This document shows, in pieces, positions 2,288 to 57,412 of a stretch of DNA of 64,000 nt; the stretch's first letter is position 1; each line of letters starts with the position of its first letter. Origin of the DNA: Octopus vulgaris (Eukaryota); NCBI GenBank assembly GCA_951406725.2, contig OX597816.1:32178001-32242000 (forward strand), given 5' to 3'. A program made the translations under genes and the position numbers. Under the pieces are notes generated by a model, which worked only from the letters and a program-made list of their open reading frames with translations, did no database searches and was not told the origin of the DNA.

Positions 2288-2776
2288 ATATATATATATA
2301 TATATATATATATATATATATATATAATTTCAACAATTGAGGGTAAAATTAATTAATTAATTATTAATCAATTTCACCAAGTGTTCAGTATGTAAAGGGA
2401 CCATTTAAGGCGAATTCAAATTATTACATTATATAAAAGGGCTTAGTAAAATAAATTACTTTGCCACATACTGAACTCATTAGAAATAGCAGCTAAAAAA
2501 ACTTTTTTAAAACTATTTCTAATACTTAAAGAAAATCTCTCATATAGTGCTTGCTCAATTCAACTCACTCATGAGTTGAATTGAGCAAGCACTATATGAG
2601 AGAGATTTTCTTTAAGTATTAAAAATAGTTTTTAAAAAGTTTTTTTTAGCTGCTATTTCTAATGAGTTCAGTATGTGGCAAAGTAATTTATTTTACTAAG
2701 CCCTTTTTATATAATATATATATATATATATATATATATATATATATATATATATATATATATATATATATATATA
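2288..2776. mobile_element. (TA)n-inserted element with near-perfect palindrome (PLE-type 3' end, tail-out)
   Basis: 2428-2715 is a palindrome with ~140-bp arms centred near 2571, flanked by (TA)n; it shares GCTGCTATTTCTAA and a terminal hairpin with 56900-57410. Confidence 0.7.
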
Positions 2777-2829
2777 TGCATGTATGTATGTACATATTCA
2801 CGTGTCTTTCTGCTTATGAGTGGTTTTGT

Positions 2830-5800
2830 TCAAGATTATACATTTTATTGACAATCCACGATGAGCACTCAGAACAGTGTGGAACGACGCAAAGGTATAT
2901 CAGTTTATTGCAGTAAGGAATTATAAATGAAAACGTGAATATCTTACAACTCTTCATCTGAAAACATTCTTCATCTTTCGACTATGTATGTTATTAATAC
3001 ACGTGAGGAATTTGAGACATCGGAATATTTCGAACATACTGTTTGTCTTTTCAAAACACAAAAGATTTTCAGACCAGATATTATGTCTGAATCTACCAGA
3101 AAACTCTAGTATTAAAACTGTCCATATTTTGTTTTCTTTGGAGTCTCAATGTTGTGATAGCTTCTCTTGAAACGTTAATCTGGATTCATTATTAATCATC
3201 TAATATTTTCTTTGCTTACATGAGGTTACTTTACCGGTAACTACAGCTGCTGCTGCATATAGTTGCTTACTTAGTAAGGGATGGTGTGAGAAATAAGGAG
3301 CGACACTATGAGATGATATAGAAGGATAACATCTTTCTTAAGAGGAGAGTACCACTTCAGGATTTACATTCTATCTTTTGATTTTTGGCATATCTCAATA
3401 TGTAAAAAAAAAGATGGTGCTTCCATATTTCCATAAAATCTATTTATTTGATATTTGTGTAATTTCAGAAGTTGTTCATAGCGCTATTTTGCGCCCACTC
3501 GGTCAATGATACTACGACGTAACATGAAGAATTGAAATTAGTTAGGCTATATCATTCGAAAATTTTCAGTAGTAAACGACATCGATTTTCTTTTTCAATA
3601 GCGGGGGAAAATGTGGGAGAAGACTGAGACTAGAAAAGGGAAATATTCAGACATTTAAGTTTAGGATTATAATTAGACTTAAATAGGATCGATTTATCTA
3701 CATTCATTGTCTTTAACAGCGGAGAGACAACGGATTGGGAGAGACATATAATGATCAAATGATGGATAGTCTTATGTCCGTCTTAATTTTGCTTTAGAAG
3801 TTTAGGCGTGTTACATATTGTCTTTTCCATTTTTTTCTCATTCCAATACATTTTCTCAACAAACATAATACAATACATTGTTTATTCTTTTCGGGTGTGA
3901 ATGTGGGATCATTGGTTTTATTTCTTTGTGTCTTATTTAATCTGGAGAACTTAGGTTTGTTATCGTATTTATTTTACCTCGCTATGGCACTTCGTCATCC
4001 GTTTTATAGATAACAATCGCAATTCAGCCAGTGTTTAACGTATGAGTGTTTACTTCTCTGGCAAATTCAGCTGCTGTATCTTATAGTTGTTTACGGAGTA
4101 AGAGAAACAGGGAAAGAGAGTGTCATTACGAAATGAAAGAGGCAATGCATCCCGGTGTTGCCCGGGTGTCATGATTTACAAATACAGTGTATTAGTTTCT
4201 TAAGGGCAGAATCGACACAGGAAGAGTGTGAAGCAAATAACTCTTGTTCGTAAACATGTTTTTCGGTTATTTTGGGATGTACTATGCTGAAATTATTCAC
4301 ACCAAAAATATGTAGAATGGCAGCTTAGATTTGAATGTAATCATAGCATTGCACCCAAAATGACATAGAGTTAGCAGTAAAGAATTGGATGGCATATGAG
4401 GACGTAGAGGGACCCGTATTGCACAAAGGTACACGAAAAGAAAGCTTCTGTAATGCTTAGGCGGACTGCACACTTAAACATATGTTAAGTGAAGCCGACA
4501 ATGATCCTGGCTAGATTATCTTTACTCACTGTTGTAGAAAAAATCTTTGATTTTTATTCACACAGATTTGTATCATATGTTTGGAAATGCAAACGGCGTT
4601 ATGAACTGTATGTGTATATATACGGAACATAACATTTTCATTGCTATCCATTCTCTATTGAAATTCTTTGAGCTATTATGTCAACATATGTCTTTAAGTA
4701 AGTATTACAGAATTGAAATGCAAAAACAGTCATAGTAAGCGGAAACAAGACTCTTAAGACCCCGAATTCTCAAGTATAGGGGAATAACATGGGAACAATA
4801 TGCTATTTGGGAATCGTGAATACATTACTTAATGTCATATTTTCAACCAAATACTTTCAACGATCGTTCGACAAATTTCTTTTCATGGAACTATTTCTCT
4901 TAAAACATCAATTTGCTGATTTTACACTTTAGAATTGTGTGATTGTCCCTGTTAACACTTATTTTATGGGTCTCTACCGTTATAAACGTGTTGGTTCTTA
5001 TGATTCTATATTCAAACCTACTTAAAAGCAACAGGGTATAACGAAAGTAAGGTGCACATAATTCACTATATATTGTTAAAATAGCCAATAATGTTATATT
5101 GAAATTTATCCATATTTATTTACACGTTAGTTACATTTATATTTTTGGAACATTAATCCATAAAAATGCTCCATAATTTTATATAATGTTACGTATTTGG
5201 TAACGATATTTTATGGTCTGAATCATCAGTATTATGTTCTACAACAAAGTAGTAATATGACATTATATAAAACAATATATATGCATGATCATATAACATA
5301 GATATCATATTCATGATGATCAGATATCAACTTAGAGATATTCATTGTTGAAGGAGGGTGACACGATTCAGCATACCAGCTTCCTTTGTATAACTATCAG
5401 AAGATCATAATTTCGAATAAATTGAGATGTTAATGTAGGGTCAGCTGGACACCGTCTGTGAATGAAACATCACCATGACGCAATTCACACTACGAGAAAT
5501 TTAGTAAGAGCACACCGCACTATTTGGCATTTGCGCAAGAAGCTCCACTACAAATATTTCTGAGTGTTTGGATGTCAAGCTGAGGCGAATGCCATCTGAG
5601 AACATGAACCGAGAGTGATAAATATCAAACAACCCGTCAGCTTCGAGGTTCTTGATGTTATCACTAGTGATGGTGACGTTTTCCCTTCATTAATCTCTTC
5701 ACGCGGCCTCAGACTCATTATGGAGGCCTATTTCAAATGCCTGGAAGCGGTAGTACTGCCCTGGTCAAGAGAGTGGCTGCTTATGCCACGCAATCAACAG

Positions 5801-55169: not shown

Positions 55170-56500
55170 CGGTCAAACTTTTGAAGCAATAATTCGACAG
55201 GCTTTGATGCTCACATTGGTATATTTGATGTACGAGCATCTGGTATAACTTTTCCTAGTTTGCATGTATCCAGAAAGGAAAACTGGCTTTTGAATTTTGC
55301 ACGAAAATGATTAAGTTTCTTAGGTGGTATAAATGCTGCTTTCTCAATTTCCGGGAATGTACACATGGTATTTCAATTGACTTCTTGGATCTCTGTGACT
55401 GTTATGCTAAAATCTATGGCTTTACTTCCAACATAAAATTTATGTCTAGTTTTTCAAATACAGGCATGGCATTTTTGGTCACAGAACTTAAGTTCCCAGG
55501 AGACAGAATATTGAGAGAGTTATTTTTCAGGCCCACGCCATCCCACATTCACCTCCAACGCTAGTCCAATAATAAACATATAATTCGGTCAAATCCGAAA
55601 TCTCAATTTTCCATGATAAAACGGATTTCTACTGATACGGGGGATTACTGGAAACATGGAAATGCTTTCGTACGTGATTATGTCGAACACAATTACAGTG
55701 AAACACGACTCAAGGAAACAGCAAATGAGATTAGCAAAGAAAGTCAAACCTCCACGTATAATTTTAGCAAACACAAAGCAATATGTGACAGCATTCCTTT
55801 AGTGATTAACTGGCACAGGAATTTCGCTGGCATTTCAAAAGTATTGCATGCAAGTTACTAACATGTTGCCCGAAAAATATCTTCGTTTCAAACAGATATT
55901 TCCTCAGCCGCCTATTACAGCCTTTAGAATAAATAATATATAAGAGAACTATTGACTTCTATTTCCCACTCCAAGAAAACTAGCATTGGTGTATCTGCAC
56001 GCTGTACCTTGAAAAACAGCCGCAATATAAATAATCCCGGTTCATTGTGCAACCTCATGAGCCAACGTAAATTCCACCAGGATTCATAACAGAAATGTTA
56101 TGATTTATACAGATTATATAGATTTCTATTTGGTGTACACGATAGAATGCACGAAACACAACTCGATTTACGTGGGTTGTACAAGAGAACAATTACGCAA
56201 AACATTTAAGGCGAAAACGTAAGTGCATATTCTCAGAAAAATATTCTGAATCTCTCACACTTTCAACACTTAGAATGTATGAATAAAAATGTTTGCGCTC
56301 ATTAATATCGCACCTTGGAGGAATGAAGAAAGTGACAGAATTTCATCAAATTTATACAAAACTATGATTAAATATTCTACTTTTCTTGTCCACCCTTTTT
56401 TTCGTCTGTTTTTCTTTTCGCCAGGTATACATTTGGAATTTAAAGACTGATGATGTCATTTCATCAAAATGTGGACACTGGTTTCTCTCATTCATACTTT
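55170..56500 (+). mobile_element. Decayed Penelope-like element: RT C-terminal half, linker, GIY-YIG
   Basis: SNIKFMSSFS..MAFL.T..RPT.SH..L..KSQF..IKRI; IPLVINWH; LVYTIECTKHNSIYVGCT.EQL...F at 56130-56222; broken CUGAUGA motif at 56447. Confidence 0.8.
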
Positions 56501-56904
56501 AAATTTGAATTTCTATGATTTTAAATTTTTATAACTATGTATATTAAACTCATCAGAAACACGCTTCCTGTCGATATATCGTTGAACCAATCGGATCTAT
56601 TGCAATCGCATCGCACTCATCGTCTTCTCTATTATAAATATTATTATTATTATTATTAATATTATTATTATTATTATTATTATTATTATTATTATTATTA
56701 TTATTATTATTATTATTATTATTATTATTATTATCATTAGTGTCAAAATGAGAGAGATGCATATGTAAATTCAAACTGTAAACGGGTGTATGTATGTATG
56801 TATATATGTATGTATGTATGTATGTATGTATATATATATATATATATATATATATATATATATATATATATATATATATATATATATATATATATATATA
56901 TATA

Positions 56905-57412
56905 TACATAGAGAGATAAAGGGTGAAATATAATTAATTTAATAAAATCAACGAAATAGTTTTTCGGTATGGAAAAGGACCATATTCTGTAAAATTATAT
57001 ATAATTATAACAATGAGGGTCTTTGCAACAGGTTCCTAGACCACATACCGAAAGTATTAGAAATAGCAGCCAGATTGTGAGTGTGTGTGTGTGTAAACAT
57101 ATGAGGAACCCACTCATGGGATTCAAGATGCTAGAAAGAACAGCTAGGTTCTATAACCACAAAATTAGGGTTAAATTTCGACAGGAACGAAATGAAAAAT
57201 AAAAACATTTTACAATCTAGTTTCCTATATATAATTATCAATAATAAAGGGTGAAATTAATTAATTTAGAAATAATCATTAATTTCACCAAGCGCTGTGG
57301 TTTTACTGGGATCTCCCTTTTAAGTAGAAAGAGTAGCCAAAACTTTTTGACTGCTATTTCTAAATTCGGTGTGTGGTGAGGCAAATCGTTGCTAAACCCT
57401 TTATTACTTTGT
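56905..57412. mobile_element. Two (TA)n-anchored 3'-end elements of the GCTGCTATTTCTAA family
   Basis: 56905-57071 and 57230-57412 share the terminal hairpin and motif with 2330-2715. Confidence 0.6.

Follow-up and report, generated by a model that had tools for sequence, protein, structure and literature searches.

We describe a folded RNA domain, first seen in a 64,000-nucleotide (nt) window of the Octopus vulgaris genome (contig OX597816.1, positions 32,178,001 to 32,242,000), that is shared by many repeats inserted in (TA)n and likely positions a Penelope-type reverse transcriptase (RT), probably of the Hydra clade, at two start points on the RNA. This reading is drawn from sequence comparisons. 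Positions below are coordinates of the whole window, and features lie on the minus strand unless Table 1 gives another. An initial annotation of the window had listed seven hairpin-like motifs and proposed that they belong to a covarying, non-hammerhead RNA structure conserved where elements inserted in (TA)n have their 3' ends, serving either in recognition by the RT or as an unrecognised ribozyme. All seven motifs were found in place, on the minus strand and 2–30 nt before (TA)n, and the structure is real, covaries across 13 lineages and is larger than was reported there. At six of the seven sites, a non-coding tandem repeat that bears a hammerhead and is inserted in (TA)n comes to its end; two of these sites (16404 and 57249) are 5'-truncated stubs whose direct arm holds the terminal hairpin only. 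The seventh (16536), which alone is linked to a GIY-YIG gene, is the end of a Penelope element of the Hydra clade; it is contiguous with its open reading frame (ORF), as had been noted, but it has a different tail, lacks the fold and matched neither of our models of the domain (R1 and R2). Every site searched belongs to a high-copy family.

A covarying fold in 13 lineages

The domain measures 150–200 nt and has the architecture P0-[Px]-P2-[Pa, AU-rich linker, Pc, U tract]-P2'-P0'-Pt in 22 representatives of the 13 lineages: a weak outer helix (P0), a long helix (P2) that encloses hairpin Pa and one or two further hairpins, and a terminal hairpin (Pt). Pa and Pt have a common base, in which G-R-Y is mostly paired with R-Y-C and is followed by one unpaired C. 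Their loops and inner stems are unconstrained, and the third Pa pair deviates in lineages I and N. A model built from families A, D, E and F revealed lineages G, H, I, J, K, M, N, P and Q in fetched loci. The locus that holds lineage I had been picked without the model, and N2 came from a hammerhead-first scan; N2, when held out of model R2, was recovered at E 4.6e-5. In 400 kilobases (kb) of arbitrary stretches, R2 found three copies.

Helix P2 is present in all 13 lineages. In a sequence-only MAFFT alignment of the 22 representatives, 90.9% of its cells are paired and seven of nine pairs are double-changed, and RNAalifold recovers the helix unaided, with double changes in seven of eight pairs. 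P2 and Pt together are 89.9% paired, compared to 78.4% after shuffling (0 of 500 shuffles as good), while slid registers gave 34–48%. When scored over the 13 lineages, with J, which was misaligned in alignment A2, re-anchored by hand and N2 added by hand, 88 of 91 cells pair, against 70.5 ± 2.7 in permuted data (0 of 100,000 permutations). Each variable column shows 2–5 changes per strand on a tree built without P2, and unconstrained folding gave the G-C pair of P2 a probability of at least 0.6 in 24 of 25 representatives. In one copy of family A (L230), a further P2 pair, the one at the inner end, has changed from U-A to C-G, and both letters are common at this position in contigs (four runs).

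The outer helix P0, scored in 14 of 15 representatives (family A, with one mismatch, falls outside the rule), is 81.6% paired compared to 71.4% in shuffles (0 of 500); by another scoring, 66 of 70 cells pair versus 57.0 ± 1.9. G-U pairs outnumber A-C oppositions by 17 to 1, which fixes the strand and agrees with the preference for the minus strand that the initial annotation had seen. Its long-range helix with compensatory changes stands in part: both of the helices cited are present, but they are two different ones, P2 in families A and F and P0 in D and E. The A/F swap singled out there (CAG/CUG versus CGG/CCG) is also present, but at CpG sites where it could be deamination; other pairs carry the case.

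Insertions end at two places beside equivalent hairpins

Along whole monomers, two sites account for 35 of 37 3' junctions with (TA)n in family A, 38 of 40 in G and 36 of 39 in H, and the 5' junctions scatter. These genomic 3' ends lie at UA steps of the AU-rich strand that immediately follows, on the 3' side, Pa (inner end) or Pt (outer end), ~100 nt apart. Among 277 ends counted within 45 nt of an anchor, 252 are 4–20 nt from it, and the median offset from the unpaired C is 9–13 nt for inner and 8–19 nt for outer ends. Microhomology of at least 2 nt with the target was seen in 156 of 189 clean junctions, versus 0.18–0.50 of positions by chance. Tandem arrays read through both sites, and the ends are therefore internal starts, not RNA termini.

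The two starts are used together. Among two-armed insertions, 58 combine an inner with an outer end, three have two outer ends and none has two inner ends, a count that omits single-armed and off-locus (8) insertions and those classed as other (11 of them two-armed). The H set collected with a hammerhead query, which overlaps the first H set, gave nine inner-outer pairs and none of either other kind. The RT-recognition branch of the initial annotation is thus borne out to the extent that the ends occupy two fixed positions, each next to one of a pair of equivalent hairpins.

The domain belongs to non-coding hammerhead repeats

The elements with the domain are tandem, non-coding monomers of 470–590 nt (565 nt in A, 583 in G, 546 in H, ~470 in E and ~549 in F). 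Copies are 5'-truncated and often carry an inverted arm; partial tandems occur, and the tail sits at one end. Families A, G and H are young, their best copies being 95–99% alike. First-look candidate counts, all lower bounds, are at least 1688 for F, at least 1884 for D, at least 1273 for E, at least 830 for A, at least 2706 for G and at least 2586 for C, the family of the 16536 element. A hammerhead-only scan placed a type I hammerhead core with three stems upstream of the fold in 11 of the 13 lineages (carriers A, D, E, F, G, H, I, K, M, N1, N2 and P, with a U-for-C core variant in F) and detected none in J and Q. The spacing from hammerhead to folded domain is ~100–200 nt in each lineage.

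Judged by sequence features, the elements fit animal non-LTR (long terminal repeat) retrozymes with a Penelope footprint, the footprint being taken from PMC8557442 and PMC3846280. Like the animal retrozymes of PMC7229834 and bioRxiv 10.64898/2026.07.22.740005, which are proposed to be mobilised by Penelope-like elements, they are protein-less tandem monomers with a type I hammerhead, but those here are longer. The accessible text of these two sources describes no shared recognition structure, and that of the preprint has no match to "tail", "recogni" or "stem".

A proposed role in positioning the enzyme

We suggest that a dimeric enzyme would nick both strands of (TA)n, with each subunit putatively binding one hairpin, Pa or Pt, and with P2 and P0 holding the two hairpins together. 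The nicked end would anneal to 2–5 nt of UA in the RNA and copying would run towards the 5' end. The outer start would then copy the domain itself, producing the Penelope "tail", and the inner start would yield the tail-less inverted arm. The multimeric transcript would be cut by the hammerhead and not by the folded domain. As a more tentative generalisation, which we hold to be possible though not yet probable, Penelope-like RTs may read a bipartite RNA code in which two equivalent hairpins, one per dimer subunit, set both priming sites in every insertion; the retrozymes of this genome would have evolved their own covarying version, and autonomous Hydra elements of other organisms would carry a near-invariant twin hairpin for the same job.

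RNA structures that recruit or position RTs include the 3' stem-loops through which long interspersed nuclear element (LINE) enzymes select the RNAs of LINEs and of short interspersed nuclear elements (SINEs), the 3' untranslated region (UTR) of R2 and the telomerase RNA, in template positioning. The octopus domain differs from these in that two starts lie inside the RNA and are used together in one insertion.

In the Poseidon element PAc (Frangieh et al. 2024, PMC11167929), reverse transcription begins at two internal sites, one on either side of the tail, and the enzyme is predicted to be dimeric. PAc shares with the octopus elements the two internal starts downstream of a hammerhead, the optional tail between them and AT-rich targets. 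However, the PAc tail is 30–40 nt compared to ~100 nt here, and its starts lie in an AC-rich loop without homology, whereas those here are at UA with microhomology to the target. In addition, the multi-branch fold here is kept across 13 lineages and the elements are non-coding; the PAc work, the one in vitro study, mapped two starts, with no conserved structure in its accessible part.

RNA signals for retroelement enzymes are already known, as are two starts and a one-sided tail for Penelope elements; a conserved covarying structure behind the two Penelope starts was not found in searches of open-access text. The finding bears on how Penelope-like enzymes choose their RNA and on why the tail sits at one end only. 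Should such a bipartite code exist, the sister group of telomerase would gain its first defined element for template selection, and the one-sidedness of the tail would be accounted for. With compensatory variants available from 13 lineages, the starts mapped and an intact young candidate enzyme of 960 amino acids in the same genome, the question is directly testable, and testing it would show how protein-less ribozyme RNAs hijack Penelope-like enzymes.

A common transfer RNA (tRNA)-like SINE (L202, L206, L207) terminates in a GGC..GCC-C hairpin followed by several bases and (TA)n, resembling the Pa and Pt ends; it may borrow the same enzyme.

Coding Penelope families and metagenome Hydra elements

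In family C, the UTR and a hammerhead recur in the loci displayed from 30 protein-selected matches, and a second copy is likewise contiguous with a GIY-YIG ORF. Families C and P1 (the latter also coding) bear the marks of the Hydra clade, namely a C-terminal GIY-YIG, DKT, CxxC/E/N/CxH, no CCHH, a (TA)n target and a hammerhead, the GIY-YIG profile match (E 0.0013) being below the cut-off. Coding family P1 shows RW[KR] and CxCX5C, and gave no match in searches of PDB and Pfam; the aligned protein of family C starts too late for RWK and is without the linker. Assignment to Neptune was dropped in favour of Hydra. A relation to Naiad, with its selenocysteine insertion sequence (SECIS), was rejected as well (PMC8557442), since the coding relatives carry their endonuclease at the C terminus and canonical hammerheads are present in the elements. 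The octopus elements share with the Hydra clade of that paper the (TA)n target, the hammerhead, the tail at one end and the inverted truncated arm. One locus (L351:3881-6760, minus strand) holds an intact Hydra-clade ORF of 960 amino acids in a young element with near-identical copies (94–99%), a 2.1-kb 3' UTR, a hammerhead and two starts 175 nt apart. In relatives of family C (window 16507–16690; L040, L175, L184, L224), the inner end follows ..CTCC/CCCC and a U-rich strand, and the tail also has a long hairpin and a small UACC/GGUA hairpin.

In coding family P2, which is young (L371–L400) and has a copy ~5 kb left of the window (G000:C3:32172680), 27 of 30 loci contain a fixed two-armed family A fragment in the TG/TA-rich 3' UTR. 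This fragment is a passenger copied with its host. The passenger arm of one locus (L377) shows a run of sense-strand A-to-G changes that looks like RNA editing fixed in DNA. Two RNA-like runs separately show an excess of A>G, for which subfamily A3 accounts in part; it was not used as evidence.

Metagenome Hydra loci (L431–L508) have a near-invariant hairpin, GCUC/GAGC then ACU, between the hammerhead and the start codon. It was found once in 44 and twice in 32 of 50 hammerhead loci, with copies 55–83 nt apart and immediately ahead of the start codon, and its matches are 121 sense to 12 antisense. In the four informative loci, the insertion end lies 2–5 nt 5' of a hairpin copy. By analogy, these twin hairpins support two hairpins for two starts as a parallel design. 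A common repeat (L206, L216, L240, L340, L341, L344) holds one GCUC..GAGCACU stretch like this hairpin, which may be chance.

Weighing the alternatives

Several observations weigh against positioning of the enzyme by the domain. No autonomous element with the fold was found: R1 and R2 missed the tails of family C, P1 and coding family P2, and among the 78 metagenome Hydra loci they matched none (best E 0.74 and 1.6), the metagenome elements having a different twin hairpin. Mobilisation by a Hydra-clade enzyme thus lacks a 3' structure shared with a coding partner; the only feature common to C, P1 and coding family P2, by eye, is a hairpin ending in ..CC before the starts. One family D copy (L069) follows a GIY-YIG ORF and may be nested there; D was rejected as an autonomous element, this being one locus only, with none of the other copies displayed continuing into the fold. 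PAc, unlike what we propose for Pa and Pt, needed RNA 3' of its starts (PMC11167929). P0 is thermodynamically weak (pair probability <0.3 in 15 of 16 representatives scored), with C opposite A at one pair in Q and D3, and for certain decayed single copies (Q2, E4, K, N1) predictions of Pa or Pt closure are poor. Most lineages were found with a model that contains P2, the shuffle controls ignore relatedness, and loci were picked by tail queries, which inflates outer ends.

The hairpin that marks the starts of metagenome Hydra elements lies 3' of the start in the four informative loci, whereas Pa and Pt lie 5' of it and more loosely (medians 8–19 nt). This keeps alive an explanation in which the fold serves the lifetime of the RNA (stability, circularisation, a free hammerhead, exposed AU-rich strands), and in which each start is either an accessible UA step left open or is dictated by an element on its 3' side, as in autonomous Hydra elements. 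Such an account would also suit the start offsets that differ between families, the coding partners without the fold and the description of retrozyme circles as highly self-paired (PMC7229834). However, each monomer has many AU-rich stretches of which only two are used, there is one arm per start, and the identical G-R-Y/R-Y-C-C base before both starts goes beyond the demands of stability. We therefore consider this explanation unlikely, if far from negligible. It could also be that no structure is selected and that the helices are inverted repeats inherited from insertion fold-back, compounded by CpG decay and search bias. Inverted arms are indeed common in these insertions, Pt of family D occurs as two perfect palindromes, and discovery was guided by a model. 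Moreover, taken by itself, the terminal RRU..AYCC motif is no more frequent in the window than chance would give (5 of 146 flanks of TA runs, versus 5.6 ± 2.2 in 20 shuffles), so the case rests on the family comparisons. In those, the double changes in seven pairs include transversions and non-CpG sites, G-U intermediates sit on one strand and the fold was recovered in lineages found without the model, which makes this account improbable. Drosophila Penelope, whose tail is needed for endonuclease recognition of DNA (PMC11167929), raises the idea of a DNA-level signal, a cruciform or an endonuclease recognition site in the tail. With G-U favoured on the sense strand only, and with targets that are plain (TA)n and not the element, we rate it as extremely improbable.

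The initial annotation had likened the ends to ribozymes of the hepatitis delta virus (HDV) type, and a second ribozyme, HDV-like or of a new class, could in principle cut the RNA and define its ends; a multi-branch covarying fold in a retroelement would suit this, and non-LTR elements do harbour HDV-like ribozymes (PMC4209133). Members of that class need P1, P1.1, P2, P3 and P4, a UCG in L3 and CRRA (PMC6326823). The likeness here is limited to a loose order of helix, G, hairpin and C, with no nested double pseudoknot, P1.1, UCG in L3 or CRRA: the candidate loop is a variable U tract, and a U-rich strand follows the C after Pt in place of a catalytic C. A strict descriptor, in agreement with PMC6326823 and run without a positive control, matched 0 of 14 sequences with read-through flank, and a relaxed one matched 3 of 14 compared to 13 of 84 shuffles. 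The ugg-UCCUUUU-cca loop, which had been put forward as an HDV feature, is a register peculiar to family F (D is similar) and is not kept in A, G, E or H. The comparison with Rfam that had been proposed gave no match at gathering score in 20 sources, and missed the hammerheads too, so this blank is weak; three chance matches fell on two family A monomers, and in the window only microsatellite and microRNA noise was present among the matches listed (150 of 201). The junction strands are variable U/A tracts without a conserved catalytic core, ends scatter over several UA steps, tandem arrays continue through them and a hammerhead is already present upstream. A second ribozyme is thus very improbable, and the folded domain adds no ribozyme class. 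A tRNA-like cloverleaf was also rejected, by eye, on unfit junction lengths.

Sites in the window

Table 1. Element ends, arms and parts of the folded domain in the 64,000-nt window.
Feature	Position	Strand	Remarks
Family A direct arm, 5'-truncated, retrozyme-type	2326..2575	-	outer-start end before (TA)n 2288-2325
Helix P2 5' strand, family A	2467..2475	-	
Hairpin Pa, family A	2440..2465	-	GGC..GCC + C; inner start ~9 nt 3'
Small hairpin Pc, family A	2400..2411	-	
Helix P2 3' strand, family A	2384..2392	-	
Terminal hairpin Pt, family A	2342..2378	-	GGU..ACC + C; outer start ~14 nt 3'
Family A inverted arm	2579..2713	+	inner-start end, before (TA)n 2714-2777
Short stub, terminal hairpin resembling family M by eye	16387..16435	-	no R1 or R2 match
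Family C Hydra-clade Penelope 3' end	16507..17725	-	GIY-YIG end 17423-17725, 3' UTR, canonical hammerhead 16718-16790
Family C end, continued	inner start after 16680; tail to 16507	-	tail fold differs
Family D end	35787..36020	-	hammerhead 3' part 36006-36018; P0 5' strand 35922-35928
Family D end, continued	helix P2 35887-35897/35813-35821; Pt 35788-35808	-	
Family E end	47789..47983	-	P0 5' strand 47937-47945; helix P2 47912-47921/47836-47844; Pt 47801-47832
Family E two-armed fragment	48034..48205	.	inner-start end on both arms
Family F end	56907..57075	-	helix P2 57044-57052/56963-56971; Pa 57018-57042
Family G terminal hairpin stub and inverted arm	57226..57411	.	stub 57249-57291 (-)
Family G inverted arm, joined to stub	~57344-57411	+	inner-start end

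The window copy of family F has lost the base of Pt through a 9-nt deletion. Arms with an inner-hairpin end, absent from the list of the initial annotation, are at +2677, +48160, +57375 and -48106. Another TA-flanked repeat is present in two copies that are 90% alike, at 19926–20137 (plus strand) and 38695–38906 (minus strand), with a weak R1 match (E 0.2 and 1.8) and no R2 match.

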